From: Cyanophora paradoxa CCMP329
Taxonomy: Eukaryota > Plantae > Glaucophyta
Assembly (NCBI GenBank): GCA_004431415.1
Contig: QPMI01000507.1
Span: forward strand, 243,777 to 307,776
Direction: 5' to 3'
Length of the DNA: 64,000 bases
In this document: piece after piece, positions 1-64,000 of the stretch
Numbering within the stretch: the stretch's first letter is position 1
Layout: each line of letters opens with the position of its first letter
Position numbers and translations under genes: made by a program
Notes under the pieces: generated by a model
What the model was told of the DNA's origin: nothing
The model's database searches: none
What the model saw: the letters and a program-made list of their open reading frames with translations, nothing else

Positions 1-150
1 GACTCCAACAAAACGGATTTGCCGGTCCTCAATAAATCAATCCTCCGGGTTGCCACTTCGCAGGCTGATCCAGTCAACTCGATTCCAAATGCTGCCCCAA
101 TGGTCTCAGGGTTTGCCAAGCTCGGTATTAAACCTGGATATCGCCGTTAA
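1..150 (+). CDS. 3' fragment of Lys-rich hypothetical protein (homolog of 27508-28284)
   Basis: Reads DSNKTDLPVLNKSILRVATSQADPVNSIPNAAPMVSGFAKLG after one indel, matching the C-terminus of 27508-28284. Confidence 0.7.
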   Translation, partial: DSNKTDLPVLNKSILRVATSQADPVNSIPNAAPMVSGFAKLGIKPGYRR

Positions 151-517
151 GGGACGGCTCACGCATCATTTCCGAATTAAAAAAATCTTGAACATTGTTA
201 GCGCTACGTAACCAATTCTTATCCCGTTGGCTCAAAACTTCTTCATTTTTATGGAGGCGTTGTAGAGCGAAGTGAAATATCCATAGGTAAATCACTTTAA
301 TCACCTGTTCTACTGGGTTCAGTGGTAGAAACTTGCAGCCGACAAGTGAACCTCTTTGGGTATCGGTGGCTTTATCATTTTTCCAGCATCTTCTTTCGTA
401 CTGGATGCAATGCGATTGGGACCAAAAATTGATTGGGTTCTCACAAAGAATATATACACGACATAAAAACTACTTAAAGATTTCTTAACTTATATTAAGA
501 GAGTAGAAAGGACAAGA

Positions 518-781
518 ATGACGATCACAGAAGCCCAAAAGAAAGCAACTTACCGCTACCGTAAAACAGAAAAGGGTATGTTAGCGCTTGCTAGGATTAA
601 TGAGAAACGCAATGCAAAATGGAGCGAACTCTATAACAATGATGAAGAATTCAGACAAGCTCACATAATGACTTCATGCAAGGCTCAATATGTAAATAAC
701 ACCATTCTCTATGTAAAGTATCTATTTGACGTTCCTCATACCAACCGTGGACGTCCATCAAAGTATGTTAATGCTTGTTAA
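518..781 (+). CDS. Small basic protein with C-terminal AT-hook-like RGRP
   Basis: 87 aa. Homologous to 28617-28874 (shared EAQK.ATYRYRKTEKG and NRGR.SKY). Upstream region conserved between copies. Confidence 0.75.
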   Translation: MTITEAQKKATYRYRKTEKGMLALARINEKRNAKWSELYNNDEEFRQAHIMTSCKAQYVNNTILYVKYLFDVPHTNRGRPSKYVNAC

Positions 782-1013
782 TCGTTTTTCTCAGCGCGAT
801 TGCTCTGAGAACCCGCGGAAACCGCGCTGGAAGCAAAACTATAAATCTTTCTGTTATTTTTAGAGTTCGATGATCGAGCCAACCCTTTGTTATTTTTATG
901 AATGCCCTCGACTAAATTTATTTTGTTGGAGACTTTTGGTTTTGTCGGTAAAATTTGACGCGAGTATAAAATGACTTAAGGAAATAAAATATAGAGTATA
1001 TATAAAAGTGAAA

Positions 1014-4000
1014 ATGCCTCGACCAAGTAATCGGATTTCGAAGAATTTGCAGGATGAGATTCTTGGTTACTACATGCAAGCAAAAGTAGAAGACAAATTG
1101 ACCCGAGAGCAGGATATCTATTTCTTGAGAGAATTTACTTTCAAAGCAATTAGAATTCCAAAGTTGATTGATATCAGAGATACACTGAGAGGTATCGTAG
1201 AGCCTCGTTTGTATCGCAAGCAGGAGAAGAAGGAGAAGAGGGCTGAGAGAGCCGCTAAGAATGTTGAGAAGCAGAACAAGAAAGCAGCCGAAGCAAAGAA
1301 GCGGAAGCGCTTTGATCGCAAGCAGAATAAGAAGGCTAAACGTTCCGCTCGTTCCCAGAAGAATGTGGAAAAGCAGCAAAGTAAGCAGTTCAAAGCGCTG
1401 GTAAGGAGAATCATAAGGGATATTGAGGCCCAGGATGGCGATACAGTCTCGCTTCGTGTGAGGTTTTACCGAATTCCTGAAGACTTCAATAACCTCCCAA
1501 ACAACTACGATGTTGTTATCCACGAAGACACACCTTACATTGAAACACAAAAATCCGGAAAACGCGCATTGATGCTTTCCTGCCCCAAGCAAGTGCTGGT
1601 GAGATTGCTTGAACAGGTGCAAGAGGACTTTAATAACTTCCTTGCATTGTGGACTCTGAACGAAATTGCTTCCTTCCTGATTTCTATTGGGCAAAGCAAC
1701 CCTCGCAATCGAGACTATCAATTCGTTAAGGTTTTCACGAATGATGCGCCCAATGGATCAGACATCAAGTATCCAGAGGTGATGACAATCGAGGAGATTA
1801 TTGTCAGCGATAACAAAACAGTATACCCTTTGAATGAACGAGTTCTGCGAGATGGGCAGGCTCCAAAAATCGTTTCTCGTTTCGTGAAATACACCCTCAA
1901 TGGTCAGGCTAAGTGTGTGATGGACCAAATATGTCCCGATGATTCACTTACCATCAAAGATTGTTTAATCGAAGCATTACATCAGGTTCTATGCAAAGGG
2001 TTTGAGTATGCCCGCAGCATCAAGAAGTATAAGAAGGTCAACTACTCCAAAGACTGGCTCTTTGCTCAGATCAAGGGATATGAACCTAAGCCTGATTCCG
2101 ATTGGGGAGTGAGTTTTGATGAGCTTCTTCCTTTCTTGAAAAAGTGGCGCATCAGGTTCATTGCAATTGGAAAGGATGACAAGGTTATTCATACTCTTTC
2201 CTTCAAACCGAATCGAACCAACTCTCACTTAGTTCCCGCAAGTGTTTACGTGCAGATTGCAAACGACCACGTTTATGTATTAAATAAGGATCTCAGTAAA
2301 CTGGTTCGTTCTTTCAATGGAACTGGCGCCCGTGAAACCAAGAAGAGTATGGGTTCAGCAGCCATGAAATACAAGATCAAAACACAGTTCAACGATAACA
2401 GCTTCTTTGCTTACAGCGAGGAGGATATCATCAAGATCATTGCCAGAGAGAAAGATAGTAGTTCTGAAAAAATTAAGATCACATACAACAAGCCACTACT
2501 TGAGTTGTTGGGAAGCTTCCGAAAGGCTAATCACGAGGTTCACACTTCCATTACTGATGAGGGAACAATAACCTACATTCACTACACAATAGAGGATAAA
2601 GATGTAATTATCCTTCCACCAGGCAACATGGTGGATATGGAAAATATTGATGTGAACCTTGCAGATGATGCGCATCGCAAGTTGTTTGATGAGATGAGTC
2701 AGATGATGTATAGGGCGCTTATCAACAAACCCTACAAGAGCAAATATAATCCAGAAACATATGCAGCATTTACTAAAGGGCAACAGAGTGCATTGACTGG
2801 GTTCTTTGGATCTGCCTCTGAGGTCCGAACAATGGTAGAGAACATTGCCTATGGATCCATTGATACTCACAAGCTCGACATTTCCAAAGCATACACACAC
2901 ATCGTTTCGAAAGTGCTTAAGGTGTTTCCAGTTTTCAGTTCATTTGATAGATTCGAAAAAGTCAAAGTGTCTTGCAGCTCGGACATCGAAGACAATTCGT
3001 TCTATTCCGTGAAAGTGAAAGCCAAACACTTCAAAGCATTCAGAAATTATGGTGAGGCGAATACCTTGAATCAATACAAGAGGATTCTCGTCGATTCAAA
3101 GTATAACCTGATGTATGGTGAGGTTTTGAAAGAGTTTTACGAGGATATTAAGGATGACATCAGCATTGAGGCAGTTCTAAGACCTTATCGGATTGCCGAG
3201 AATGTCACCTTGCAGGCTTTCAAGCAGTTGTATGCAAGTCAGCTTTCGACCAAGGAGAAGAAAGACATTGCCAACCATCACATTGGTCTATTTGGTAAGA
3301 AGTCCCAGCGAAAAGCAACCACCTACACCTTTTTCAATAAAAATGATGCTCTGAATTTCATTGAAGAGAATGGAGGGACCCTGAAGTTTATAAGTTTCGA
3401 TCAAGAGAAGCCAACACACACATCAGTTAAGAATGAGAAGGACATTAAATCGCCCATGATTTGGTATGTGAACCAGGAAGAACAAGAACGGGCTTTCATT
3501 GATGGTTTCCTGCCAATGCAGTGCGTGATTTACTCCACCATGCGAGGCATCATGTATCGCCTATGCAAGAAATTGCTCTCTGAGGGAGTGGGAGTCCTTG
3601 CAATCAAGACCGATGAGCTGACAATCGATAGACCATATCCATTCGAGCAGTTTGACCGAAACCTATTCGAGAACACTGGAAAGTTTGATGTGAAGCCAGC
3701 AAACATGAACTCGATAACCCACAGTAAGAGGACTTCCAAAAAACCAAAGAGCCACATGATCACATTTGATCGACTCAAAACTCGTTCCAAACCTTTCATC
3801 AATGTTGAAAAGATTGTTCACAAGGTTCACAAGTTCCAGGATGAGTATGACCTCCCAGCAATCGTAAATGCTTTGGATGGGCAAGGTAATGTGCTGATTA
3901 AAGGAGTGAAACCGGGAACTGGTAAGACTACTTTGGCAAAGGCAATGGCCAAGAAGTATGGTAAGAAATGCTTGTTCGTTGCGCCTACTAATAAGAGATG

Positions 4001-5198
4001 CAAGGATTTGCGAATGGAACTAAAAGCAGAGTGGGGGCAGGATGCTCCTGAGGTGATGACTATTTATCGAGCCTTGAATTTGAATGTTGATGATGAGAGA
4101 ATGAAGGGAAATGTTGGGAAGAAGGTTTCGGAATTATCTAAGTACGATTGCTTTGTTATTGATGAGATCTACCAGTTTGAGATTAGGGAATTGGAATCTC
4201 TGTGCGATGTGATGACTGTGCAGTTCCCAGACAAACTCTACATCGCAACAGGCGACCCCTACCAGAACCCACCCATCCAATTCATAACAGTCAATCAACG
4301 AGATTACTACAACAAGATCTTCGATAGACTTTTCAAGAACGAGGTTTACCTGCAGGTTGGAAAGCGTCATAAACTGGCTGCAGATCAGAAGAAATTTGAC
4401 CAGTTATGGGAGGACTTATTCAGGACTGAACTACCAGTTTCTATTGCTGCCAGACGATTGGGCTTGAAAGTAGTTGATACATTGGAGAAGGGTGATATCT
4501 CAGTATGCAATTCAAACCGCAAGTGTGCAGAGGTGAACAACAAAATGCATAAAATGATTCATGGAGAGGATCCTGTATATAAGACAGGTGTGGAGCTGAT
4601 TGCAAAGGTGCGAATGACAACAAGTGAGGGCATCATTCAGCGGGGCTTTGTTTACGAAGTGGTCGAATACAAAGCCAAGGAAATTCTCACTCTCAAAGAC
4701 ATTGATTCGGGTGAAGTGCATACTCTAAAAAGCGAAGATATCAAGTATTTCGCATTGACCCATGCTTTCACCTGTCACATCATTCAGGGTGACACAATCA
4801 GGGATTCTCGTGTTGTAATTCACGAGACTGGGTCCCCATATGTTACTGCTGAGTGGTTCTATGTTGCAGCAACTCGAACCCAGAATCTCTCGGATACTGT
4901 GATTTTCGTTGATAAATCCGAGGCAGCCACAATGGTGAAAACGAAGGAGGATCAAGCTCAGAAAATCGATTCCTACAAATCCCAAGACAAACAAGCCAAT
5001 CGGGAGTTCTCCTTGGCAGAGTATGTTGATTGGGACTGGTTCAAAAAGCAGTATGGGAAGCAATTGGGGCGATGCAGAAGGTGCTTTGATATTATGGATT
5101 TCGAAGAAGCCACTGTTGATCGGGAGAACAATGCTATCGCTCACATTTCTCGAAACTGTTTCTTGTCACATTGTAGGTGTAACTGTTCAGCCCAGTAA
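1014..5198 (+). CDS. PolB-like / SF1 helicase / HNH-like Zn domain fusion
   Basis: PolB-like motifs DISKAY, KKDIANHHIG and KTDE. Helicase motifs GTGKTT, DEIY, TGDPYQNPP, TCHIIQGDT and YVAATR. C-terminal CxxC...VDRENN..H..NC...CNC. Confidence 0.85.
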   Translation: MPRPSNRISKNLQDEILGYYMQAKVEDKLTREQDIYFLREFTFKAIRIPKLIDIRDTLRGIVEPRLYRKQEKKEKRAERAAKNVEKQNKKAAEAKKRKRFDRKQNKKAKRSARSQKNVEKQQSKQFKALVRRIIRDIEAQDGDTVSLRVRFYRIPEDFNNLPNNYDVVIHEDTPYIETQKSGKRALMLSCPKQVLVRLLEQVQEDFNNFLALWTLNEIASFLISIGQSNPRNRDYQFVKVFTNDAPNGSDIKYPEVMTIEEIIVSDNKTVYPLNERVLRDGQAPKIVSRFVKYTLNGQAKCVMDQICPDDSLTIKDCLIEALHQVLCKGFEYARSIKKYKKVNYSKDWLFAQIKGYEPKPDSDWGVSFDELLPFLKKWRIRFIAIGKDDKVIHTLSFKPNRTNSHLVPASVYVQIANDHVYVLNKDLSKLVRSFNGTGARETKKSMGSAAMKYKIKTQFNDNSFFAYSEEDIIKIIAREKDSSSEKIKITYNKPLLELLGSFRKANHEVHTSITDEGTITYIHYTIEDKDVIILPPGNMVDMENIDVNLADDAHRKLFDEMSQMMYRALINKPYKSKYNPETYAAFTKGQQSALTGFFGSASEVRTMVENIAYGSIDTHKLDISKAYTHIVSKVLKVFPVFSSFDRFEKVKVSCSSDIEDNSFYSVKVKAKHFKAFRNYGEANTLNQYKRILVDSKYNLMYGEVLKEFYEDIKDDISIEAVLRPYRIAENVTLQAFKQLYASQLSTKEKKDIANHHIGLFGKKSQRKATTYTFFNKNDALNFIEENGGTLKFISFDQEKPTHTSVKNEKDIKSPMIWYVNQEEQERAFIDGFLPMQCVIYSTMRGIMYRLCKKLLSEGVGVLAIKTDELTIDRPYPFEQFDRNLFENTGKFDVKPANMNSITHSKRTSKKPKSHMITFDRLKTRSKPFINVEKIVHKVHKFQDEYDLPAIVNALDGQGNVLIKGVKPGTGKTTLAKAMAKKYGKKCLFVAPTNKRCKDLRMELKAEWGQDAPEVMTIYRALNLNVDDERMKGNVGKKVSELSKYDCFVIDEIYQFEIRELESLCDVMTVQFPDKLYIATGDPYQNPPIQFITVNQRDYYNKIFDRLFKNEVYLQVGKRHKLAADQKKFDQLWEDLFRTELPVSIAARRLGLKVVDTLEKGDISVCNSNRKCAEVNNKMHKMIHGEDPVYKTGVELIAKVRMTTSEGIIQRGFVYEVVEYKAKEILTLKDIDSGEVHTLKSEDIKYFALTHAFTCHIIQGDTIRDSRVVIHETGSPYVTAEWFYVAATRTQNLSDTVIFVDKSEAATMVKTKEDQAQKIDSYKSQDKQANREFSLAEYVDWDWFKKQYGKQLGRCRRCFDIMDFEEATVDRENNAIAHISRNCFLSHCRCNCSAQ

Positions 5199-6255
5199 TG
5201 GAGAATATTCTATCATACAAAAAATACAAACAGAAGCTCATTAGTGAAGGGAAGGAATTTGATGAGGCGGAACTGAGAAACAAGTATAAGAATTCCGAAC
5301 TGCATCAAATTTTCAAGAAGCCTAGGAAAAAGACTACGTTTTTAAGAATAGTTGCCCAGCCATACTCATTTCAGGTTGATGTCATGTTTTTCAGAAAGTT
5401 TAAGACAGCAAATTATGGATACATTAAAGCGCTTAGTTTCATTGACATTCTAAGTAGAAAGGCATTTGTGTATGCTTTCAAGACCAGCGAAGAGATTCCG
5501 GGAATACTTAATAAATTCAAGGGCGAAGCAGGTAAGGTTGTAGGATTGGCAGGGGATAATGAGTTTTCCAGTGCGGTTTATCGAACTTGGTGCAGTGAAA
5601 ATGGTGTCGAATTGTATACAGATGTTGCGAAAGAAGATCACATTTCTGCTGGGAATAAACTTGGGATAATCGATCGATTCACTCGAACCTTCAAACAATA
5701 CATGAACAAACTCATGGTCTCGAGGAATACTTCGAAGTGGGTCGAATTAATCCCAGATGTGCTAAAGGCTTACAATAACTCGCCTCATTCATCACTGAAC
5801 AATGATTCCCCAAACCAAGTGTTTGCAAGTCCACAGAAGCAAATGTTTATTTTCCTAAAAACCACCAAGCATAACATGGATGTTAAAGAGAATCAACCCG
5901 ATAAAATCAAACCAGGAGATACTGTAAGAGTTTTAGAGGAGAGAGGTGCATTCTCAAAGGAAGGCCCAGGTTCAGTCAGAAGATTTACAAAGTAGCTGGG
6001 AAAGATGCTAATCGATTCAAGGTGCTTGAAGATAATGGAGATGATGCAGAGGAATTAAAGAGACGTTTTAAGCAACAAGAGTTACAGAAAGTGAAACGAG
6101 ATGAGATAATGAAAATTCCACAGCAAATGAGGATTCAAGCTGTAAAGAAAACAAACACAGTGAATCGAAAAGTTGCAAAAGAGGGAATCAAACCAAATCG
6201 CAGCAAAGTTGTTAGAAAAAGGTATCAATTAAGAAGCGGATTAACTAAAAGGTAG
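5198..6255 (+). CDS. rve-type (Polinton-like) integrase, one frameshift near 5970
   Basis: FQVD, IDILSRKAF, GDNEF, IIDRFTRTFK, YNNSPHSS and KPGDTVRV. Joins ORFs 5198-5995 and 6022-6255. Colinear with 58025-59082. Confidence 0.85.
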
Positions 6256-6571
6256 TTGGGTGTAATGCATATAACTTCGATTGATTAGATTTTAGATATA
6301 ACTTCGATTAAATAAAATAGATTGTGACTGAGGCTTACTGAGATTTACTGAGATTGGGGATTGGGTTACTGGGAATCATGCGGATATTGCTTGAAGGGGC
6401 AAATTATATTGGGGTAATTTTTGGGTGTAATGCATATAACTTCGATTAAATAAAATAGATTGTGACTGAGGCTTACTGAGATTTACTGAGATTGGGGATT
6501 GGGTTACTGGGAATCATGCGGATATTGCTTGAAGGGGCAAATTATATTGGGGTAATTTTTGGGTGTAATGC
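6256..6571. repeat. Terminal repeat block of A1 (~138-bp tandem unit)
   Basis: Unit repeated from 6298 at 6436. ATAACTTCGATT at 6271, 6298 and 6436. GGGTGTAATGC three times. TTACTG runs. Confidence 0.85.
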
Positions 6572-9500
6572 TCACAGCTCAGCTGCTGTGTATGCATTTG
6601 CAAACACAATAGGAGCTGTTGCTGGATTTCCTGTTGAAGACCCTGTGATTGCCCCATACTTATTCGCGAGGTAACTATACAATTCCTGTGTTACAGGCGG
6701 ATTACTCACAGATCGACACACCCAAATATTGCATGTGGTATCATAGACCGTGTCCCTGATGAAAGGCGGTAGAGCTGTCCCACTGAATGACTCAAAGAGC
6801 CCATTTCGCGATAGCAACCTATGCCCTGCATCACAGTTACCACCCTCAAAGTACTTCGAAGCTGAAATCGCGCCCTGCACATAAATATTGCATGTCGTGT
6901 GCATTCCAATGTTATTTAGGTTAGGAGTGTATCTGTCATCGAGCCGGACAGTGCACACCCATGGGGAAGCGGTTTTAATATATTTCTTATCGCCTGCTGT
7001 GATCACATCAGTGTTTGGGTGGCTTTCGATTTGGGTAGCAATAGACTCATATTTGTAAGAGTAATAAACTAAGAGACCATCTGTGGAGGATGTAAAATAA
7101 AAGAAGTCTCTCATGAAGTCTGTGGATCCAAAGAAGTCAGCATTGGTCGATGTTAGGGTGACTTTGGGATAGCTCATGCTGACAGTCTCAGAAGGATATG
7201 GAATATAAGAGGTGTAATAGCGATTTAACAGATAATAGTAAAATCCATCTGAGACATTCGAATGAGTGGGCAAGGTGACTGTTAAGGTCTTACTGCGATC
7301 CTCAAACGTGTTCTGTATGACGATGTTGCAAGTATTAATGTATCGAGAATCGAAAAAGTAATTATTCGAGATCAGAGTCGCATTGGTTCCATTAAATACG
7401 AAATTCTGCCCATTTATTCTCGTAGTATGGAGGTCGGTCACATCGAGAGGATACCTAATTTTCAAGCGATCTTCGGGGTCGAATCGTGGTATAGTTCCTG
7501 TTGCCTTCCAACTAATAGTAAAAGGAGGAACAAGGGACACTGCTGGGATAACAGAAAGATTGAATTTTGCAAAATACAATCCAACAGGATACCCTGACAG
7601 AGCATAGGTCACAGTTGCATTTCCGACAAGTGTAAAGCCGGTTGTTGTTATATTTGTGGCGACGAATGGAGAGTAGCCTGCTGGTGCATTTTGAAGTGAT
7701 GTAGTTGACCCATCATTGACCACATACAAATTTGTGTCAGTTATTTCAATAGTAGGAGGGGAGACAAATGGAGTCTCAAATGTGAAGTTAAAGTTTGCTG
7801 GAACCCCTGCAAGGTATCTATATGTTGTTGCTGATATATCGGATGCCTGGATTACTTTGCTTCCCCTCTGCACTACATTACTTGTGTCTTTCACATTGTG
7901 GTATGAGATGCTGGGAGTCGGGGAGAGCACCAACGAAATAGCATCTGGTAAATCAGACTTTGTTATATACAGCTCTTTAAGATACTCCTTTTTGAAAGGG
8001 GCGGTCAGTTCTCCTATTGTAGAAAACGACCCTGCACTCACAATATTACAGGTGTTTGTATTCAAAGAATAAGATGTGTTCCACCTTAAAGAATTCGCCC
8101 CAAGATCGAAACCCTGTGCAAAGGGAACGATATTGCTCCCTTGTAAATCTCGGTAAACCTTCACTCTGGGTTTGCTATCGAATTCAGGGGTGATATAATT
8201 GATGGTAAGAGTGAAACTAATAGTAGCTTCGGAACTCAATGAGTTGTTTCGGATGATAAGTAAATTGTATGTCTCGTTAATGACAAACGAGACCTGAAAC
8301 CCTGTGGAGGTGACATTTTGGATAAACGCTTTATTAGATTCATTATTGTTAGTGATAGGATTATAATAAGTAGTGTGATCCACCAATGAAACAGTGGGTA
8401 TAGTCGTCTCGAAACCTGTGACACCCAACTGATCCCAAGTGAATGTATATGTAGGTTTGCCTACGTAAGCGACATAGACCCCATTTGCGAGCTGCTGAGG
8501 GTATCCCTCGACAGTGTAGGTCTCAGTTTGCGAAACCGAGCGGGAAAGGTTACTATTATAGTCGGTGTAGCTGATCAGTGCATTATCATTGGTAAGAATC
8601 TGATTAGGTCGGAGTGAGTGATTTAATGGAAGGATTAAATTGGAGGCAAACATGGAAACTCCATGCACCTCTGACCATCTCAGATTCGAGAGACCAACTC
8701 GGTATGTGTTATCGATAGAAGGGTAAATGTTCCTTTTTGAGAGAATGTGAGCCAAAGAAATTGCAAGCGCTCCATCTGCTGCAAACAGTGCATTAATTTC
8801 GGATTGCAAAGCGGCGATTTCGGTAGTGTGGGTCGTGAGGGTTCCATCCTGGCTGGAATCTTTGGTGTTCTTGCTCCTCTCGAACTCCAAAAACGCCTTT
8901 ACGATGTCCTTGCCCAAAAGATCGTTTATATTGTCTCTGGTAATGTGAACATGGTCTGTTCTCAGTGCCTGTTTCTCTGTGGTAAAAGCTGGAATTTCCT
9001 CTGCAAATGATATAGTCGTTTTATCAAGTGCTAAGGATCTCACATTCGGAGCATTGGCGCCAATTATATCCACAACGTCCCCATTTTCGACAATTTCTAA
9101 GGTCGGTTTCGCGGGGTCTAATGTGAAAACGCCCTCTGTTATCTGGGGAACCGATTCGCTCTTCTGAATCACAAAGGATTCGATGTTTAGGTTACAGGTT
9201 GCGACATTGGTGGCGAAAAACGACTCGGAGTTAAGCGAGTTTACGTTCAGGGTATCCGTAGTGATGTTACTTGCTGTAATATTACTCGTCGTAAGATTAC
9301 CTGCTGAGAGATCATGAACGACCTCTACCTTTGTTTTCCGTGTGGATACTCCCGCTATAAGTGTGCTATTATCCACGATTCTCATAGCTGCATTTTGGAA
9401 ACCGCTCTCATCTTGAATGGAGAAGTTTAAGCGACCTCTATCGAATGCTTTTGGGATGTTCCTACGATTATATCGCACCGTTTTCGGTAGCTGGCGGGTT

Positions 9501-9757
9501 GCCTGAATGCTGGCGACTCGGTTTCGCTCGTTATCATCAAGTAAAAAGTCGATTCCAAGTTTATGATCCCCTTTCTCGACGTTCATTAACTGCAAAGCTG
9601 CGGGTCTGCTCGGTGTTCCACTAACTGGGTCTTCTCGGTCTGCATTGTAGTTTATCCTCAGAGACCCCCGAATTTCGGTGTTCACTTGATCAGTGTCTTC
9701 TATCTGCGTGGTAGAGTTAATAACTCGTGCATCGGGTCTCGGATTCAAAAACGACAT
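6572..9757 (-). CDS. Large fibre/virion-surface-like protein
   Basis: Probable start MSFLNP at 9757. Contains a coiled coil, fibre-type motifs (NIYPSIDNTYRVGLSNLRW, NIVPFAQGFDLGANSLRW), two lectin-like F..P.V...N.T.TGF modules and repeated TCNI. Function inferred. Confidence 0.65.
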   Translation of the reverse strand: MSFLNPRPDARVINSTTQIEDTDQVNTEIRGSLRINYNADREDPVSGTPSRPAALQLMNVEKGDHKLGIDFLLDDNERNRVASIQATRQLPKTVRYNRRNIPKAFDRGRLNFSIQDESGFQNAAMRIVDNSTLIAGVSTRKTKVEVVHDLSAGNLTTSNITASNITTDTLNVNSLNSESFFATNVATCNLNIESFVIQKSESVPQITEGVFTLDPAKPTLEIVENGDVVDIIGANAPNVRSLALDKTTISFAEEIPAFTTEKQALRTDHVHITRDNINDLLGKDIVKAFLEFERSKNTKDSSQDGTLTTHTTEIAALQSEINALFAADGALAISLAHILSKRNIYPSIDNTYRVGLSNLRWSEVHGVSMFASNLILPLNHSLRPNQILTNDNALISYTDYNSNLSRSVSQTETYTVEGYPQQLANGVYVAYVGKPTYTFTWDQLGVTGFETTIPTVSLVDHTTYYNPITNNNESNKAFIQNVTSTGFQVSFVINETYNLLIIRNNSLSSEATISFTLTINYITPEFDSKPRVKVYRDLQGSNIVPFAQGFDLGANSLRWNTSYSLNTNTCNIVSAGSFSTIGELTAPFKKEYLKELYITKSDLPDAISLVLSPTPSISYHNVKDTSNVVQRGSKVIQASDISATTYRYLAGVPANFNFTFETPFVSPPTIEITDTNLYVVNDGSTTSLQNAPAGYSPFVATNITTTGFTLVGNATVTYALSGYPVGLYFAKFNLSVIPAVSLVPPFTISWKATGTIPRFDPEDRLKIRYPLDVTDLHTTRINGQNFVFNGTNATLISNNYFFDSRYINTCNIVIQNTFEDRSKTLTVTLPTHSNVSDGFYYYLLNRYYTSYIPYPSETVSMSYPKVTLTSTNADFFGSTDFMRDFFYFTSSTDGLLVYYSYKYESIATQIESHPNTDVITAGDKKYIKTASPWVCTVRLDDRYTPNLNNIGMHTTCNIYVQGAISASKYFEGGNCDAGHRLLSRNGLFESFSGTALPPFIRDTVYDTTCNIWVCRSVSNPPVTQELYSYLANKYGAITGSSTGNPATAPIVFANAYTAAEL

Positions 9758-9800
9758 CCTCTTTATAAACAAAGAAGATATATTAGAAGTATATAAGATA

Positions 9801-11294
9801 ATGAAGACCTGCCTCGCTTTGAGTGGCGGGGGGTCGCGCGGAATAATCGAGGCTGCTATACTGGCACAGATTGAAGCCCAAACCGGTAAACGAATCCAAC
9901 AGCTATTCGACTGCTTTGCGGGAACATCCACAGGTGGATTAATCGCGCTCCTATTAAATATCAAGGGAACCGATGGCGCCCCTAAATATACTGCCACTGA
10001 TATTCTGGCGCTCTACAAAGCAAAGCTACCGCTGATTTTCGCGAATCCACGAGTGCTTACATCGATTGTACAGCGCCCAAAGTACGAAGCAACTAACTTA
10101 GAAGCTGTGGCTCTGGAACTCTGCGGCTCAGCGACTATGGCGGATCTCTATAAACCAACCATCGTGACTGCGTTCGACACGGTCTTAATGTCCCCCGTTT
10201 TTATTTCAAGCAACGATGAAGACATAAATGGGATGCTTGTGCGCGATGCTGCAAGGGCTACCTCAGCTGCGCCCACCTATTTCGAGCCGAAACAAGTCAC
10301 AGTCGCCGGAAGAACATACTGTTTAATTGATGGTTGCATGAGTGGAAATAATTCGCCCGGGGTTTGCGGCTACACATTTGCCCGCACTTTATTCGGAAAC
10401 TCTTGCGAAGAGGAGCTTATCGTGGTCTCGATTACGGCGGGTCACGTCCAAGACTCTGATAAGGCGACATCTGGATATTCGTACGACACTATGAAAAATT
10501 GGGGGATCGTGCAATGGATGCTAAGCGCCACAGGATCGCCAATTCTCAGCATGTTCTTAGAGTCGAGTGATCTAAACGCCCACGTAAAGCTACTGGAACT
10601 TTTACCCAGAAACGATGATCAGAATTACGATCGCTACTATAAGCTGAGCGTTCCTTTACCGAAAGATAAAATGACCCTCGATACTATCACAACGAGTCAC
10701 CTGCAATATTTGGAAACGGAAGCGCTCGCGTTTGTTTCCGCACAGCAAACGTATTTTAATGCGATGTATTCAGTGCTGACGATGAATATCTCAGAGGGCG
10801 ACGTTCCCATTATTAATCTGTCCGGGTGCACAGATGTAAGCGCACCCCCGGAGTCTAACTGGGTGCCGCTCGATAATAGCGCCTTTATTGCGGAATTTGG
10901 CACAGCTTCTGATGCCCGCTGGTCAAATGCTACGGGGTGGGTGGGATTTACCAACCCACCGCAAGGTAGTAGGTCGGGAGGCAATTATTTACGCATTGAT
11001 TTTCCGCGTCTGTTTATGCTTTCCTCTATAAAAATGAAGCCGGCTGCGAATGGAAACTACATTAAAACGTTTGAGATCGATTACCAATTAACTCCGGGAG
11101 TTTCGGCGCTTGTAACATACACAGAAGCCGGCGCGACGAGAGTGTTTACCAATGCAAATCAAATAGCCGGAAGTGCTGATCCCGACGAACATTTCTTAGC
11201 AAACCCGAGATCTGTGAGAACCCTCGTAATCTGGGTGCTCACGACGAACGTAGCTTCGGCATGCCGAATTGATTTCGAGGGCTACTATGTGTGA
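9801..11294 (+). CDS. Patatin-like phospholipase fused to C-terminal F5/8 type C (discoidin) domain
   Basis: Patatin motifs LSGGGSRG, GTSTGG, ATSAAPTYF and DGC. C-terminal YLRIDF...YIKTFEIDY...RVFTNAN...CRIDFEG fits the discoidin pattern. Confidence 0.85.
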   Translation: MKTCLALSGGGSRGIIEAAILAQIEAQTGKRIQQLFDCFAGTSTGGLIALLLNIKGTDGAPKYTATDILALYKAKLPLIFANPRVLTSIVQRPKYEATNLEAVALELCGSATMADLYKPTIVTAFDTVLMSPVFISSNDEDINGMLVRDAARATSAAPTYFEPKQVTVAGRTYCLIDGCMSGNNSPGVCGYTFARTLFGNSCEEELIVVSITAGHVQDSDKATSGYSYDTMKNWGIVQWMLSATGSPILSMFLESSDLNAHVKLLELLPRNDDQNYDRYYKLSVPLPKDKMTLDTITTSHLQYLETEALAFVSAQQTYFNAMYSVLTMNISEGDVPIINLSGCTDVSAPPESNWVPLDNSAFIAEFGTASDARWSNATGWVGFTNPPQGSRSGGNYLRIDFPRLFMLSSIKMKPAANGNYIKTFEIDYQLTPGVSALVTYTEAGATRVFTNANQIAGSADPDEHFLANPRSVRTLVIWVLTTNVASACRIDFEGYYV

Positions 11295-11329
11295 CTTCCT
11301 TCGGTCGTTGCGCGCTGACGAGACAGCGC

Positions 11330-12175: not shown

Positions 12176-12191
12176 AATCTATTATAGTAAG

Positions 12192-13118: not shown

Positions 13119-13165
13119 GCCCTGCAAATTATTTTCTGATCCCAAAGATAAGAGAAGAAACGCTC

Positions 13166-14479: not shown

Positions 14480-14537
14480 GGAATTCGTGCGATTACCACA
14501 TTCAGTCTTATTTTTCTATTGTTTTTATAGTGAAAGA

Positions 14538-15404: not shown

Positions 15405-15406
15405 TC

Positions 15407-16245: not shown

Positions 16246-16294
16246 TCCCTTTTATTTTCTCCGATATTTAATACGTTGCGTCCTTGTAGGATCG

Positions 16295-46051: not shown

Positions 46052-46053
46052 TC

Positions 46054-55131: not shown

Positions 55132-55197
55132 TATTATTTAAGTCGATATTTTTACCCTGTTCATTTTATCATTTTTCATAGATCATGCATGTTGTTC

Positions 55198-56123
55198 GCA
55201 TGTATCTTGCATAGTGGGCGGGGCGCGAGTTTATTTTAACGTGGTCTATCGTCGTACTTTGTCGTAAATATGCTAATCGTACATTTCGATTCGTACATTT
55301 CGATTGAAGTCGCAAGTTTGTGCAGGTGGGCATTTTCGGCATGCTTGCTCATGCACAAACTTGCTTTAAAAAATATTAATCTCATTTTAAAAATCATAAA
55401 TTAGCTCGTCCGAGTCTCACTTAACACTGTCGCATTTATAGTAGAGACCATCCTTCGTACTTTGCTTTTTATTATACTCGCTTGCAGGCTTCTCAATCTT
55501 GCAATCCGGGCATATCTTCGATTGTACTTCGATTTTCGGACGCGTTTTTAAGACATTGTGATAGTGATCATTTTGATAGTCACGGTGGCACTCTATGCAT
55601 CTCCAATATAATGTTATATTTCCCGACTTGCACTTGCGCAAAGGGAACCACGATGCAGGCTTGACCTCTTTGCACACATTGCACAGTTTACTTTTAGGTA
55701 AGGGGAGCTGATTACCCGGCATCTTTATACTTGTATAGTGGGAAATCTTTAAGTGGGGATATACGCACTATATAAGTTAATTTAACCTATCGGTGGGGCT
55801 CACCTTGATTTTTCAAATTGGACTACTGAAAACAGTTCGACAAGGATCAGGAACATTACGCAAAAAATAGGGTCTTACTGTCCTTACTGAGAGATCGGGG
55901 GAAAGTTAAAGGGCTTACTGGGAATGGTAAGGAATTAGAAAAATGAAGAATGAAAGGGTTTCGTGATTGGTTTCAGTAAGGAAGGGTTAGATGTTTGAAA
56001 AATACAATGTGGCTCAGTGCGAATTTGTGATTTTGTGACTGAGATTCGTGATGCTGAAAATGTGCTTATTGAAAATGGTCGCGGGAAGGTCGCGTAATTG
56101 GTGGGGGCCACCCCCATGCGAGC
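55198..56123. repeat. Right TIR of B2
   Basis: Reverse complement of 31302-32225. Confidence 0.93.
55400..55722 (-). CDS. TIR-encoded zinc-finger protein (second copy; indel near the 3' end)
   Basis: Inverted copy of 31700-32023. Confidence 0.7.
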
Positions 56124-58025
56124 ATTGGGCAAACTGGAAAGCAACGAAATAGCAGAGTGAAAACCACCATTTTCCACAACAGAGACGATGCGATCGAGTT
56201 CCAGAAACAGAACGGAGGGGAGGTTAAAATTTACCTCTTTGGTGAGACTCTTGCCACTTATGAGGAGACAGAGTTCGTTCTGTGTGAGGAAGAGATGACC
56301 GAACCCATATCTACTATGTCAATCAGGTAGCAGAAAAGCAGCTCATTGATGGCTTCATGCCATTGTACACTACCCTCTTGTCAATTATGAGGATGTGTAT
56401 GTATGAGAAGTGTGTCGAACTCGCTAAACAGCAGATCCGACCACTCGCTTTGAACACCGATTGTGTTTATGGGATCGCTTATGAACCCATTGCCCCAGTG
56501 TCATTCGATCGCAATGCCTTTGAGAATATTGGAAAATTCAGTGTGAAATGCTGCCCCAATTTTTCTAAAAAGTTTTCAGGTGAGAAGAAAGACCTCGAGG
56601 CAAAACGAATTCGTTACGGAAAGTTTGAGAGAGCGACTGACTTTGTGAAAATCGAGAACTACAGTTATACCAAACACTCTGTGGTTGATGAGTATGACAC
56701 AACCGCGATTTGTGATTTGCTGGCTACACAAAAACGATGGGTTCTTCTCGGATCAGTTCCAGGAGTTGAAAGACTCACATGACAGTTGAATATGGGAAGC
56801 GTTTCAAAAATCCCCTCTATATTGTTCCGACAACAAGCGAGTGAAGGAAATGAAAGAGCAAGGATTGAAAAATGTGAAGACAATCTATGATGCCCTTCAT
56901 CTCAAAATCGATGAGTCGAACATGGATGAAATCGTAGGAGGGAATGCATCTGGTTTGGTAGAATTTGATTGCATTGTTATTGATGAGATCTGTCAGTTTA
57001 AGATTGGAGAACTGGCAGCCCTGGACCACATCATGAATGAGCAGTTCCCAGATAAGGTATACATTGCCACAGGTGACCCGTATCAGAACCCACCCATTCA
57101 GGATATGAGTGTTGATCAAGATGAGTATTACCTTGATATCCTCCATCGCCTGTTCCCCAACGAATTGTTACTCCAAGTGAACAAGCGCCATGAGACTGAG
57201 GAAGATCGCAGAAGGTTGAGCAAATTCGAATTGATTTATTCGAGAAAGGTTTGAGTGTAAGTGAGGTCCTAGCAAAGTACGGGTCAAGGTTGTGGACGAA
57301 TTGGCAAAGACAGATAAAGGCATTGTGTATACAAACCGCAAGGGTGCAGAGGTGAACCTAGCCCTTCACAAAATGAACTACGGGATAATGTTTCCATTTA
57401 TGCTGGCGGGATCAAAGTTGTTGCAAAGACTCGTATTGCAAAGGGTGGGAAGATAGTTCATAATGGATTTGTCTACAAGATTGTCAAGCTCTCAAAGGAC
57501 AGTTTCATTATTGCTGACATTGCCAACAAGAAGGATGAGATTGTTCTCAGCAGGGATGCAGTCAAACATTTCGCCCTGGCTTACGCAAACACCTGCCATG
57601 TTGTTCAAGGTGATACGATTCGCTGCAAAGGGAACAGGGTAGTCGTGTTCGAAACTGGGGCGCCATTTGTTTCAAAGAAGTGGCTATATGTTGCTCTCAC
57701 TCGAACCACAAGGCTGGATGATGTTGTTATTTACCATGATAATTTCGAAATGGCTCACTGGAAAGTGTGGAAAAGAGAGAATAACGAGAAGATTTCGACT
57801 TACAAGGATCAGGACCGAGCAGCAAACAGACAATTCGATGAGCATGATTACATCACATGGATTGGATCAAGCAGCGATATGGGAAGCAGTATGGGCATTG
57901 CCTGCGATGCTACAATGCCATGGACTTTGAAGATATTTCGGTAGATCGAATTAATAATGCTGTGGCTCACATTACCAAAAAATTGTTTCCTCTCTCATAT
58001 TAAGTGTAACTGTGCCGCCCAATAA
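56124..58025 (+). pseudogene. 3' half of A2 PolB-helicase (many frameshifts)
   Basis: Resumes IGQTGKQRNSRVKTTIFHNRDDAIEF. Contains NTDC, IDEIC, ATGDPYQNPPIQ, TCHVVQGDT, YVALTRT and CNCAAQ stop. Confidence 0.85.
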
Positions 58026-59082
58026 TGGATAGTGTATTATCATTCAAAAAGTATAGGCAGAAACTGATTAATGAAAAAGTGAGTTTGATGAAAAAGAGTT
58101 GAAAAAGAAGTTCAAAAACTCAGAACTCCAGCAAATTTACAAGAAACCAAGGAAACCCAAATCGTTTCTTCGCATAGTGGCAAAGCCTAGATCGTTTCAA
58201 ATCGATATAACATATTTCAGAGGGTTTCAGACTGCCAACAATGGCATTTTCAAAATGCTTAGTTTCGTAGACATACTTAGTCGCAAAGGATTTGTTTATC
58301 CTTTTAAAAACAGCAGTGAGATCCGAGCATTTTAAATAGGTTCAAGCAAGAAGCAGGCAAAGTTAATGCTCTCTCTGGGGATAATGAGTTTTCCCAGGCA
58401 GTATACCGAATTGGTGCAGTGAACATGGTGTAATGCTATACACAGATGTGGCAAAGGATGACCACATCACAGTAGGAGATAAACTGGGGATAATTGATGG
58501 TTCACTAGGACTTTCAAACAGTATCTCAGAAAATCGATGACAGCAAAGGGAACCACGAAATGGATCGATCTACTTAGTGATGTAATTGACTTGTATAATA
58601 GCAGTCCCCATTCTGCATTGAAAATGACTCTCCAAATGCAGTGTATACAAAATGAAGATAAACAGTTATTTATTTACATGAGGGATACTGTTCACAACAA
58701 TCGTGTAAAGGAGGCTGATACTAATCAAGTGAAACCAGGAGACACAGTTTCGAGTTTTGCAACAAAGGGATTGTTTGAAAAAGAAGGTGCGCAATTCAGT
58801 CAGAAGGTCTACACTGTTGCAAAGGCTGATAGGAATCGTTTCAAAGTGCTTGAAGATAATGATGGTGAGGAAACAAAAAGAAGTGAAGAGGAGATTTAAG
58901 AAACAAGAATTGCAAAAGGTGAATAAAGATGATATCATTAAGATACCATCAAAAAACGGATTCAGCAGGTTAATAAAACGAATAAAGTGAATCGATTGGT
59001 AGCAAAAGAAGGCATAAAACCCAATCGGAGTAATGTAATTCGGAGGAGATACAATTTGAGAAGTGGTTTAACGAAACGCTAA
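58025..59082 (+). pseudogene. A2 integrase (many frameshifts, probably partly sequencing error)
   Basis: SFQID, VDILSRKGF, GDNEF and YNSSPHS. Ends RSGLTKR like A1. Confidence 0.8.
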
Positions 59083-59471
59083 ATCATGGGAGACACGGCG
59101 GATGAAAAGGATATAACTTCGATTAAATATAATTAATCGAGATTATGATATAACTTCGATAAATAAGAATTTAAGATATAACTTCGATTAATTCGATTTT
59201 TGTTACTGAGGCTTACTGAGATTTAGTGAGATTTGGAATTGGGTTACTGTGAATGGTTTGTTTTTCTGGGAATTGTTTTGGAGACACGTCGCATAAAAAG
59301 ATATAACTTCGATAAGATATAATTAATCGAGATTATGATATAACTTCGATTAATTCAATGTTTCTTACTGAGGCTTACTGAGATTTACTGATATTCAAGA
59401 TTGGGTTACTGGAATGGTTTGTTTTCTGATTTGTTTTTGATTTTTTCGCGGGTATTTTTTTGGAGACACGC
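59083..59471. repeat. Terminal repeat block of A2 (~190-bp unit twice)
   Basis: GGAGACACG three times. ATAACTTCGAT at 59113, 59150, 59178, 59303 and 59340. TTACTGAG runs as in A1. Confidence 0.8.
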
Positions 59472-59493
59472 CTGTGACGCCTGTGACGCCTTT

Positions 59494-59614
59494 TTAATTG
59501 AGTGTGACGCCTGTGACGCCTGTGACGCCTACTTTCAAACTTTTTAAAATTTCAAAAATCTACAAACCTCTGAAAACAGGTGTCACAGGCGTCACAGGCG
59601 TCACACCCAATTAA
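59494..59614. repeat. 37-bp inverted repeat built from GTGACGCCT 9-mers
   Basis: 59494-59530 pairs with 59578-59614 (2 mismatches) around a 47-bp AT-rich spacer. Confidence 0.9.
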
Positions 59615-59756
59615 CCACAGACTCCCCCTGTGGGTCGATGACTTTTTCGATTCTTTATCGGACAATATAAAAACGTATCGTAAATCGGTGTGTTTTGACA
59701 AAAATTGACTGGCGATTTAAGGGATCATTGCGTTTTCCCTTTGACTTTGACAGAAC

Positions 59757-59947
59757 ATGGATTATTTCGACGAAATTCAGCGCAGCTGGTCGAAAAGAAT
59801 GATATTGCAGAGGTAGCGGAATATATTGCAAAGATCAGAGCCAGTAATGGTAGACCATATCAAAAGAAGCGATTCCATGCAAGCAGACTTGACACAGTAA
59901 ATGTATATGTCCCCAAAGGCACGAATGTGCGAATCATTAGAACCTGA
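59757..59947 (+). CDS. Small hypothetical protein (probable frameshift)
   Basis: ATG at 59757 follows AAAATTGA at 59701. Joins the 59705-59947 frame with one indel. Confidence 0.35.
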
Positions 59948-60003
59948 AAAATGCCGAAATGCGTTCAAATTGCCCAAAATAATATGTTCCCTTAAAGTAA
60001 AAG

Positions 60004-63000
60004 ATGCCCCGCCAATCCAATAGAATCATCAAAGAGAAGAAAAACGAAATACTCGTCTTTTAGGAACCTTTTAGTCACTGGTGATATTACAGAATTTGAA
60101 TATGATCGCCAGGCAGCAATCTTGGATAGGAGACCAAGATTATCTCAACTCACAGAAATGACAAATCGCCTCTATGATCGTTTTGAGAAAATGGAGGAAT
60201 TCAGGATGAAGGTTTAAGGTTGGGAACAATTGAACCCGAGATTGAGGATGGGGAAAGCAATGAACAAAGCATATTCTTGGTTAACCTATCGAGCAAGAGG
60301 TGAGGTTATCCAAGATGGGATTGAATTCTTGGAGAGAATTGCACCCAATCTACCACAGAGACTGAGACAGAAACTCCAAGACCTGAGAGCAATTAAAACT
60401 CGTCTCACATTCATCTGTAAATTCACCAAAGTGAGTGATCCAAGGGTGTGGATCACCAAATTCATTTACAGTGATTACTTTGTCATCACAAGATCACGAA
60501 ATATTGATGTTGAACTGCGAAATGCCCTTCAATCTATGCAGGAGCAGATGATGCAGGTGGACAGTTACAGACTGGATCGCATTGAGATGCTGAGAGTGGT
60601 AATAATGTCTTATGCCTCCTGTGGGTGGTTGCTTCTTCTCAACTCCTGAGTGGATTGGATCAAAGAGAGCAACTGTGAATGTCAAGAATATTGATGGTCA
60701 AGATTGCTTCAAGTATGCAATCTTGGCTTACCTGCACCGAAATGATATTAATAAACACAAGAGCAATGAACCCAGCCAGTATAGAAGATGGTTAAACGAA
60801 CTCAATTTCGAAGCATCCAGTTTCCAGTTGCCTGTGATGCAGAGGTTATGATCGATTGAGGAGCAGAACCTGAACTGAGTATCAACATTTATGGTGCAGA
60901 TAATCAAGCACAGTGTTTCTATCCTCTCCATCAATCCAGCAACCCGAGGAGAAAGACCAAGATCAACCTTTTATTAATCGAAAACGAAGAGGATGATAGA
61001 GGCATTATATCACCATCATGTCTCTGAGTAGACTCCTGAAAACCACCTTTGATAAAGCCCATGATGTCGCATTTATTACTGTGAGACCTGCCTGTCTCGT
61101 TTCAGAACTCAGGAGAAGCTGGACATTCACTTAGAAGCAATCGCTGCATTGATTGGAGGGAGAGCAAAGTAAATGCCCGAAATCTGGAAGTCAAATTGCA
61201 TTTGGCTTCAACACCTTCGCAAAACTGTGTGGCTTCCCACTATCTGCTATGTAAAAATGGATAGTCACTCGGTTCCAATTGATGAGAACCGCAGTAAAAA
61301 GAGAGGTTAAAATCGGTTTCTCTAACAGTTGTGATGGGGGATGAGGTGATCTCTCATCATTTCGAGGGATCAGATCCACTTGGTGCCTGTTTACCACTCT
61401 CACAGAGATCAGACCCCAAGTAATCCGCACTCTATTCACCAATATTCCAATGCACCCACTCACAGAAAGCAGAAAGCACAATACAAGATCACTAACACTG
61501 TTATATCTGTGCCGAACGATTTACCCATGAGAATTTCCCAGTGAGAGACCATTGTCATCAATCAGGAGCATTTATTGGAAAGCATGCCGAAACTGCAACC
61601 TCCACAGAAGAATCTCAAAGCAAACCAAGGTAGCAATTGTGGTGGATCACATGGATGAATGTGGACACGAAATATTCCGCAAAATTGCACAGCAAGATGA
61701 TAAACTTCGTGTTGAGATTCTGAGCAAGAATTTCGACCAATACCTCTCCCTGCAATGGGGCATGTGGAAATTCATTGATGCTTCGCATTTCATGGACTTC
61801 CAGGCAGTGGATGCAAGTGATCTAATGGGTAAATTCCAGACTTTCCGAGAATTGGCGTTCTCACAATATGGATTGGATCCTGCTCATTATGTTCGGCTCC
61901 TGGATTATCCTGGGATGCAATGCTAATTTATACCAGAGCAAAGATTGAGCAGATCAGTGATGTAGGGCAATACGAATTTATTGAGAGGGCAATTCGAGGT
62001 GGTTTGCTACAATGCCTACTCGATATGCAAAGGTGGAAAACCCAGATGACCATATAGTTCTCTTGGATGCAAATAATCTGTATGGTTATGCTCTCAGTCA
62101 AGAACTGCCCATTGGCGATTTTCGATGGGAAGATGTCTCAGAGGCACTTAAAGAGACCCCAGGACGAAGTGCCTTCATTGAAGTTGACCTGGAATACCCA
62201 CAAACTCTCACAGATCATTACGATTTTCCACTTGTAGTGAATAAAGAGCATGTCACCACCGAAATGCTGGGTGGGTATCAAAGAAAGTTACTGGATATCA
62301 CAGGTGAGAAGATAAGCAAAGACCCCAAACTCACAGCAACATTCTCACCCAAAAACAACTATGTGATTTCCCAACCTCTCTTGGTCTATCTTGTGAGCAA
62401 AGGTATTATAATCACGAAGGTTCACAGGGTTCTCTCATTTGCAACCTCTGCATTTATGAATAGTTATATTGATCTAAATACGAAATTGAGGCGCCAATCT
62501 ATGTCCAGATTCGAGAGTGACTTCTTTAAATTAATGAACAATGCAATCTATGGTAAATGCCTCGAATCATGCAGGGGTCGCTCTGTGGTAAAGATTGCAA
62601 ACAGTGAGAAACTCTGCAAGAAATATGCTGCAAGTCCACTCATCAAGGCAACCAATGTATTAAACGAAAATGCTGTTGCCTTTGAGATGTATTCCAAGCA
62701 TGTTCACTTAGATAAACCTGTTGCAATTGGTGCTTTCGTGCTGGATTTTGCGAAACTCCATAATAGCAGGTTCTTTTTTGATGTGGTGAGGAGAACTTGG
62801 GAAACAGCAGAGCTACTATTCCATGATACAGATTCTTTCTGCCTACTGCTGCATACCAATGATCTAAATAATGAGATGAAGCGAATTTCTGAACACCTGG
62901 ATTGCAGTAATTATGATCCCTCCCACCCTCTCTTTGATAGGAGCAATCGTTTGATTCCAGGTAAATATAAAAACGAGTTTTCCCAATGCAAAGATTGTGG

Positions 63001-63248
63001 AGTATGTAGGTCTGAGATCGAAACTCTATGCTTTCAGAACTGAGACCTTGATAAAATAAAGATGTCTTTCACTTTGATGATTTCAAAAGATGCCTGTTTG
63101 AAGGCATCACCAAAACAGTAGCAGTAGTAAACAAGCGAAGGCAAGACCACAACCTATATGATTTGAGAGCAGAAGGTGGCTCAAACCAACTCGATAGCAA
63201 AAGGAAGATATTAGACGATGGAATCACAGCATTCCATTTGGGCTCTAA
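60004..63248 (+). pseudogene. polB: Polinton-type protein-primed family B DNA polymerase (heavily frameshifted as given)
   Basis: VNVKNIDGQDCFKYAIL, CETC..H Zn finger, CYIC..VRDHCH (EndoVII-like), YGLDPAHY, AIRGG, DANNLYG, KLMNNAIYGK, HDTDSF, PGKYKNE and DSKRKILDDG. Confidence 0.85.
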
Positions 63249-63430
63249 CTACTTCATTGATCTTTCTTTTTCTTTGGTTTCGCTCTCCAAGAAGTAACAA
63301 ACCGCGAATTAAATGCAGCAGCCATATACATCTTAATCCTGGATCATTGGGCTCAATTGCAAAGTAGTTTGGAATTGTGTTCTCCTTCCACACAGACTCT
63401 TGCATTTTTTATATGAGAGATAAGGTAAAG

Positions 63431-64000
63431 ATGCCTTCTACACAAATAGGATTGAGACAACCACCAAGAATTGTGAGAAAAGAGGCAATTGAAGATCGAG
63501 GGAATATCCTGCCCATCACAGTTCCAGTGGAGGAGAAGAGCAGTCGAATATTAAAAAGATCAGAGATGGTCAAGCAATTAATCCCAGAGACACTCCCAGC
63601 TGAGACAGCACCAAAAGAGCAAAGATTGCTAAGAAGTTCTATGATCCCAGGACAGGCTACAAGGGATTTACTGCAATGAGACAGGAACTACCAGAGGAGA
63701 ACTACAAGAAGATGAGAGAATGGTTGATAAGCGGAGGTTGTCCAAATTAATGCACCCACCCTATCTCGAAAGAGAGATCCCATGATTCCAATTAGGCAAC
63801 CCCTTTGATACCTATGTGATTGATCTGCTCTTCTTTCCTGCATACAAAAGCAGAATGATGGTTATGATACATTTATGAGTGCAATGAGTCAACCCTGAGA
63901 ACAGGGTTCATTATTCCAATGAGAGCAAAAGTGCTCTTACTACACTTGCAGCATTCAAGCAACTTGAACGAGAGTCCCCAGACCTATTTTCGCATTCAGA
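63431..64000 (+). pseudogene. 5' part of rve integrase (family C), frameshifted, runs off the window
   Basis: RIVRK..ILPITVP, FYDPRTGY and TYVIDLLFF parallel B integrase RIVRR..ILPIAVP, MYDPKTGF and CYQADLIF. Confidence 0.65.

Follow-up and report, generated by a model that had tools for sequence, protein, structure and literature searches.

Nested Polinton-like viruses in a 64-kb stretch of the Cyanophora paradoxa genome, with a complete virus inside the replication gene of another

Here, we describe a 64,000-nucleotide stretch of the Cyanophora paradoxa CCMP329 genome (contig QPMI01000507.1, positions 243,777 to 307,776; hereafter, the window), which consists only of integrated Polinton-like virus (PLV) DNA and holds one complete 25-kb virus inside the replication gene of another. 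Comparison of the window with itself by BLAST (self-BLAST) resolved it into six element segments that belong to three PLV families, designated A, B and C.

1-6571, plus strand: A1, a family-A element represented by its right-hand part, the left end falling outside the window; matches A2 at 28120-29414 and 57859-59412
6572-26213, plus strand: B1, family-B PLV, left end outside the window (self-BLAST)
26214-31301, plus strand: left part of A2, starting with CAGGGA, a candidate B1 target site (self-BLAST, end comparison)
31302-56123, plus strand: B2, complete family-B PLV of 24,822 bp (self-BLAST, Pfam, PHROG, end comparison)
56124-59471, plus strand: right part of A2, with the replicase remainder, integrase and terminal repeats
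59472-64000, plus strand: C, left part of a third family, 4.5 kb within the window

An earlier note on this DNA had reported no host genes in the 64 kb, and none was evident here: the 31 open reading frames (ORFs) compared with Pfam matched viral or mobile-element families or nothing, and ARAGORN and Rfam returned no tRNA or Rfam match in the window. The four inner elements share the same orientation, to which we give no weight (chance 1 in 8).

The insertion of B2 in the polymerase-helicase gene of A2 is defined by the following features, together with the homologous replicase of A1.

31296-31301, plus strand: left copy of the B2 target duplication, ATTGGG
31302-32262: left terminal inverted repeat (TIR) of B2, containing a small Cys-rich ORF
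55159-56123: right TIR of B2 (self-BLAST)
56124-56129, plus strand: right copy of the B2 target duplication, ATTGGG
29116-31301, plus strand: A2 replicase, portion left of B2, with one frame break (tblastn to A1 residues 1-758)
to 58022: A2 replicase, remainder right of B2
~58081-58850: A2 rve integrase
~59089-59471: A2 terminal repeats
1014-5198, plus strand: A1 polB-SF1 helicase fusion (Tlr1-like replicase), 1394 amino acids, open; Pfam AAA_19, AAA_30 and Viral_helicase1, with polB-like motifs A, B and C and Walker A by pattern

The two B2 TIRs are ~960 bp long and 97.9% identical (11 substitutions and 8 gap events), and ATTGGG stands on both sides of the element, a match that random 6-mers would give with a chance of 2.7e-4. 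The A2 flanks of B2, translated separately, form a continuous replicase; their junction corresponds to polymerase motif B in the homologous A1 protein, close to A1 residue 758. These results confirm the split gene and perfect target duplication that the earlier note had described. Additional evidence came from short-read contigs. Twenty DNA runs were listed, from 17 studies (two rows without a named study), at ~0.6 of the words of 4001-14000; they are possibly not independent isolates. Contigs of four of the 20 were compared over the regions 6401-26400 and 56040-64000. In all four, the alignment of a high-depth contig starts at exactly 56124 and contains 0 substitutions, and the contig continues leftwards with letters that are not those of B2 (1722 letters in three runs and 67 in one). 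We infer that these contigs represent uninterrupted A copies, whose leftward letters would be those of the left part of A2.

A second family-B element, B1, likely lies in the capsid gene of an A-family element, which, judged from its sequence, is cut after 106 codons; the left end of B1 falls outside the window.

25407-26213, plus strand: B1 right TIR, 76% identical to the B2 TIRs, terminal GCGAGC
26532 to 26215, minus strand: N-terminal 106 codons of the A-family major capsid protein (MCP), cut by the right end of B1

The B1 right TIR ends in GCGAGC at 26213, the same six bases as the right end of B2, and is followed by CAGGGA and the capsid ORF. An exact B terminus is thus placed directly against capsid N-terminal codons at 26213/26214, where the earlier note had positioned the cut, and its statement that both B insertions interrupt core A genes likewise stands for the replicase (B2) and the capsid gene (B1). 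Since the two sites differ (ATTGGG and CAGGGA), family B appears to have no fixed target word. The capsid piece is 28.6% identical to residues 11-119 of the B MCP (E 5e-6), also aligns with relatives of that protein, and gave an ESM Atlas value of 0.97 to Capsid_N clusters. A search for a longer version retrieved none, which is weak evidence, and these 106 codons are the only part of the family-A capsid module that falls within the window, where no family-A ATPase gene was seen.

The two remaining joints place an A end against a B or a C element.

6258-6571, plus strand: A1 block of terminal repeats, including a tandem pair of identical 138-bp units (6296-6433 and 6434-6571)
6572-6577: TCACAG, candidate A1 target site, within a hairpin at 6567-6598 and containing the B1 fibre-gene stop codon
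6572-9757, minus strand: B1 fibre-like gene, 1061 amino acids, whose B2 homologue runs past this stop; weak H_lectin match (Pfam)
59472-59477, plus strand: CTGTGA, candidate A2 target site in the end region of C

The terminal repeat block of A1 ends at 6571 and that of A2 at ~59470-59471, so that the contacts of A1 with B1 at 6571/6572 and of A2 with C at ~59471 are located as had been claimed. TCACAG and CTGTGA, the hexamers beside the two A ends, are exact reverse complements of each other, a post hoc match at two sites that has a chance of 6.3e-4 (5.2e-3 when one-base slides are allowed) and depends on A2 ending at 59471 and not at 59470. This match supports both A joints as integrase products and hints at a target word. 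In all four runs, loose ends before 59481-59493 revealed that other C copies extend leftwards, which fits a position of A2 inside the end region of C. The insertions of A1 in B1 and of A2 in C are plausible but unproven, their left ends and left target copies lying outside the window, and the A1|B1 joint is possibly a repair scar. Of the nesting that was proposed earlier (C > A2 > B1 > A1, plus A2 > B2), the step A2 > B2 is therefore shown and A2 > B1 likely, while B1 > A1 and C > A2 are plausible and unproven.

Besides their joints, the ends of the elements have features of their own. A and B ends share a repeated TTACTGAG block (6465-6520, 26108-26170, 55870-55930, 59198-59260 and 59358-59420), and 14 of the 15 copies of this 8-mer in the window lie in element ends; the block is a candidate for a shared end-binding or promoter signal. 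The loose ends of other C copies carry a motif resembling TTACTGAG. In addition, the C end region contains a 121-bp imperfect palindrome (59494-59614) with 9-bp repeats; terminal palindromes are discussed for Halocafeteria elements.

Comparison with the short-read contigs further revealed that families A, B and C are multi-copy, with many variant contigs, in all four runs. The main contigs were ~5-25x deeper than the shallowest listed joints, an uncalibrated ratio that is not a copy number, and no RNA runs were among the matches listed. Pieces of the right part of A2, 0.3-1.8 kb in length, differ from the family-majority contigs by 0-1 substitutions and up to 13 gaps; A2 is thus near-identical to the family majority, and the pile-up is likely recent. 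The indels listed against the contigs number 10 over the 20 kb of 6401-26400 but 75 over the 8 kb of 56040-64000, which makes long-read errors the likely source of many frame breaks. Open frames of at least 150 amino acids take up 0.87 of the sequence in B1 and 0.23 in C. Long-read cover likely falls towards the right end. Decay was accordingly rejected as the source of the frameshifts in C and in the right part of A2, since 12 gaps against one substitution in 1285 bp is an error pattern. A loose end near 63183 was also rejected as an element terminus, as it proved to be homologous sequence with indels. Over B1, 30 of the 40 listed variant letters were compared, 18 of which match the letter of B2. 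In one run (X15), two contigs diverge from the B capsid gene at 13328, and their departing letters resemble a B-type terminus, possibly a sign of another PLV-in-PLV insertion elsewhere in the genome.

We read the window as a pile of integrated PLVs in which B2 entered the A2 replicase gene and, by what were likely additional and likely recent insertions, B1 entered the A2 capsid gene, A1 entered B1 and A2 entered C, all through rve integrases acting on a viral block that the host likely tolerates losing; this account as a whole seems to us evenly poised between right and wrong. The locus itself is likely a hotspot where insertions into dispensable viral DNA accumulate. It is established that rve integrases join the ends of linear DNA to a staggered cut. 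The rve integrase of each element and, in B2, the long TIRs, both observed here, would equip the elements for insertion, although C shows only what appears to be the start of an integrase-like gene. The integrase would join the ends of the linear genome to a staggered 6-bp cut, seen here as the B2 duplication. Purging would remove insertions into host genes but spare those into resident PLV DNA, and each insertion that persists would enlarge the target, such that the block grows. The chromatin of the block, if silent or accessible, may also introduce a local bias. Interrupted copies would lose core genes, while the contigs suggest uninterrupted sister copies elsewhere, so nesting would disable single copies and not families.

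A number of observations weigh against this account. The left ends of three elements lie outside the window, and among the contigs listed none bridges 6571, 26213, 56123 or 59471, a result that says nothing on absence. The A-flanking hexamers hint at sequence choice. The youth of A2 leaves little time for two hits and a third layer, which strains passive accumulation alone and pushes towards a local bias. The depth ratios, rough and uncalibrated as they are, suggest ~5-25 copies per family. In a simulation with 20-kb elements that insert one after another, each at a uniformly random position in tolerant host DNA or earlier elements (1500 runs per setting), a five-element nest arose with a probability of only 0-0.013 when 50-100 elements met at least 10 Mb of tolerant DNA. 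The same simulation gave 0.11-0.67 for 100 elements in 5-2 Mb, and 0.13-0.95 for 400 elements in 30-10 Mb (0.95 at 10 Mb). Under this model, such a nest is a rare outcome of random insertion except with large PLV numbers or little tolerant host DNA. As for PLV numbers, 706 PLVs are given for Rhodomonas lacustris and hundreds for protist genomes in PMC12220804. The preferential PLV-into-PLV targeting suggested by the earlier note is thus not established, as the window is a single locus chosen because of its nested look, and chance nests are expected once PLVs number in the hundreds or tolerant DNA is down to a few Mb. The safe-haven branch of the same idea is the more economical one.

Under active hyperparasitism, the integrases would instead show a preference for PLV DNA. 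Family A may recognize a CTGTGA-type site, or families that replicate together may capture the free linear genomes of one another, before chromosomal integration or just after it. In favor of this unlikely explanation, each of the five element ends within the window is adjacent to PLV or Polinton DNA, A2 is very young, the A-flanking hexamers are reverse complements, and CTGTGA is repeated in the C end region (four plus-strand and two minus-strand copies in 59472-59597). The TTACTGAG-rich block common to A and B ends suggests shared end-binding factors, and the X15 loose end, from two contigs of one run, resembles a B terminus in a B capsid gene. However, these points come from one selected window and a post hoc match at two sites, tied to the A2 end at 59471, while CTGTGA is not a rare word (82 occurrences in the window, on both strands), the B targets share no word, and the Pfam scan of two integrase ORFs revealed no chromodomain. 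A more specific form, in which A reads a CTGTGA-type site in C ends and in B, and co-replicating A, B and C with a common end motif integrate mutually in one burst, inactivating capsid and replicase genes, appears to us distinctly unlikely.

The nest may also be shallower than five elements, the B junction sets being insertions and A1|B1, possibly together with A2|C, being deletion, recombination or repair joints. At A1|B1, the joint forms a hairpin of -7.3 kcal/mol, a value reached by 1.3% of random 42-mers, the 13 bases at 6572-6584 have no counterpart in B2, and the fibre ORF of B1 ends precisely at this joint, whereas that of B2 continues; at A2|C, the last repeat unit of A2 and the repeat unit of C overlap by ~3 bases. 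A hairpin as strong occurs at the A2|B2 joint (0.3% of random sequences), but is formed there by B2's own end sequence. Against repair joints, each A joint coincides with the end of a terminal repeat unit or lies one or two bases from it, both end in GC like the B elements, the flanking hexamers match as reverse complements and C copies extend left past the joint. We consider a shallower nest quite improbable. Assembly stacking, by which real PLV-in-PLV junctions of at least two loci were joined via near-identical copies and the deep nest is partly an artefact, would draw on the near identity of A2-type copies, the lack of a bridging contig among those listed, and the thin, error-prone long-read cover that the indel counts suggest at the right end (75 in 8 kb, compared with 10 in 20 kb, and 12 gaps with one substitution in the 1285-bp piece). 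We judge it quite improbable as well. The B2 duplication matches across 25 kb, which shows the assembly to be capable of positioning the two termini of a multi-copy element correctly. Between the B1 and B2 junctions, no more than 5.1 kb of A sequence intervenes, and B1 has variants of its own and a cassette that most B copies skip (24507-25348), which help phasing. Moreover, every junction would remain PLV-in-PLV under such stacking.

The central question is whether passive survival or directed insertion gives rise to PLV nests. A single locus is insufficient to demonstrate that PLVs seek each other out; given three or more multi-copy families and 20 listed DNA runs from 17 studies, a preference would be directly countable in this organism. 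Directed targeting, if true, would amount to virus-on-virus insertional warfare in a host genome by a sequence-directed Polinton-type integrase, and a shared family-A target word, if true, would provide an uncommon example of such an enzyme choosing its site. If a count shows no preference, the locus would be an ordinary, though deep, graveyard of integrated viruses.

PLV-in-PLV nesting is already known, and the window is a new, deep example from previously unsampled PLV families. In Halocafeteria seosinensis, five PLVs and nine virophages lie within other viral elements, among them one three-layer nest in a 91-kb region with TIRs and target duplications, according to 10.64898/2026.07.28.741278. 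The C. paradoxa elements resemble these in being PLVs inserted in one another with TIRs and a target duplication. In contrast to the nests described there, we find up to five elements, three families, possibly four layers and an apparent reciprocal nesting of A and B, and no virophage-type capsid, MULE or LINE was seen in this window. In Cafeteria burkhardae, 91% of type 1 Ngaros lie in EMALEs (PMC8547959), likewise a mobile element nested in endogenous small DNA viruses and the only measured preference found in the literature searched; the invader there, however, is a tyrosine-recombinase retrotransposon. PMC12220804 also describes 6-bp duplications of rve PLVs and nested retrotransposons. 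The literature searched yielded no test of a PLV-for-PLV preference and no Polinton target word, although supplements such as Table S4 of PMC12220804 may bear on it; no such preference test appeared in the consulted parts of PMC10120064, PMC12721341, 10.64898/2026.06.19.733378, 10.64898/2026.10.13.758929 and 10.1101/2025.10.09.676808. The elements also represent new sequence space. Viral contigs scanned with the B MCP, the A-end pattern and the C polymerase gave no match, nor did metagenome contigs scanned with the B replicase, and an exact-sequence look-up in a protein collection found none of 10 window proteins.

Family B supplied the most complete gene set, listed here beyond the features given above.

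9801-11294, plus strand: B1 patatin-like phospholipase (Pfam Patatin E 1e-21)
11330-13118: two B1 ORFs beside the MCP gene, candidate minor capsid proteins by position and by 22% identity to the A2 ORF 26947-27471
13166-14479, plus strand: B1 double jelly-roll MCP (AlphaFold model, Foldseek)
14538-15404, plus strand: B1 A32-like packaging ATPase (Pfam Pox_A32 E 1.7e-10)
17418-21728, plus strand: B1 polB-SF1 helicase fusion with a C-terminal endonuclease-VII-like domain, 1436 amino acids
21747-23129, plus strand: B1 rve integrase (Pfam rve E 1.7e-13)
32577-36542, minus strand: S74-chaperone tail-fibre gene, extra in B2
44418-45134: HNH-AP2 endonuclease gene between MCP and ATPase, extra in B2

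Family B was classed as a PLV by its double jelly-roll MCP, A32-like ATPase and length in the range of 14-40 kb with TIRs of several hundred bp, and its integrase and footprint agree (an rve gene and the 6-bp duplication ATTGGG). Families A and B fall outside Polinton/Maverick sensu stricto, as their replicase is a helicase fusion. The B MCP had no Pfam match. Its AlphaFold model, built from a 7-sequence alignment with a pLDDT of 66.6, found iridovirus and PBCV-1 MCPs as best Foldseek matches (E 9e-17 to 2e-15, TM ~0.4), and the ESM Atlas value was 0.98. Among 1.84 billion representatives, the protein has five relatives at E <= 0.001, the best being 62% identical. The two candidate minor-capsid ORFs gave no informative match in Pfam and PHROG scans, and no maturation protease was found among the 31 ORFs scanned with Pfam.

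B1 and B2 are 91-97% identical in four blocks, starting at 6585 in B1 and 37109 in B2; B1 has no equivalent of the left 5.8 kb of B2. The adenine methyltransferase region of B1 (24503-25348) is a variable cassette that many B copies skip (joint 24507-25348). B2 is without ~640 bp of the B1 fibre-like gene (38240-38248 versus 7704-8352), and this skip is absent among the joints listed for the four runs.

The A and B replicases both place polB-like motifs A-C N-terminal to an SF1 helicase, the helicase identified by Pfam and PHROG and the polB motifs by pattern only, with no profile match for the polB part. For the B1 protein, PHROG matched a Dda-like helicase (E 6e-13) and endonuclease VII (E 9e-11), while a single relative, 22% identical, was retrieved for the A1 replicase. 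Tlr1 also has an rve integrase. In their N-terminal region, polB motifs A-C and SF1 helicase, families A and B resemble the PLVs and Tlr1 as described in PMC5499653, with an endonuclease domain appended in B; family B shares with them the double jelly-roll MCP and A32 ATPase, and no protease was found. According to the same paper, most PLVs lack an rve integrase, whereas both A and B encode this enzyme and a 6-bp duplication flanks B2.

The A1 integrase lies downstream of the replicase.

5198-6189, plus strand: A1 rve integrase, with a frame break near 5970-5995; 30% identical to the B1 integrase in two frames, weak rve_3 match

A1 and A2 share 89-91% DNA identity at the left, mostly 34-37% amino acid identity in the replicase and 46% in the integrase. 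By these comparisons, they appear to be mosaic relatives, with a common left flank and common ends and with replicase and integrase bodies swapped or strongly diverged.

C differs in its replication gene.

~60004-63200, plus strand: putative protein-primed polymerase (pPolB) of C, with many frame breaks; polB motifs A, B and DTDS by pattern

PHROG matched this gene to DNA polymerase (E 3.5e-4), a PDB search gave no match, and the start of an integrase-like gene showed a weak tblastn match to the B1 integrase (E 0.002). An apparently canonical pPolB followed by an integrase-like gene would resemble Polintons/Mavericks as described in PMC5499653; only 4.5 kb of C falls in the window, in which no capsid, ATPase or protease gene of C was seen, and any capsid genes would lie beyond its right end. 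An N-terminal motif, MPRxxNRI, is similar in the replicases of A, B and C (1014, 17418, 29116, 48066 and ~60004) and is common to all three families despite the apparently canonical pPolB of C and the helicase fusions of A and B.

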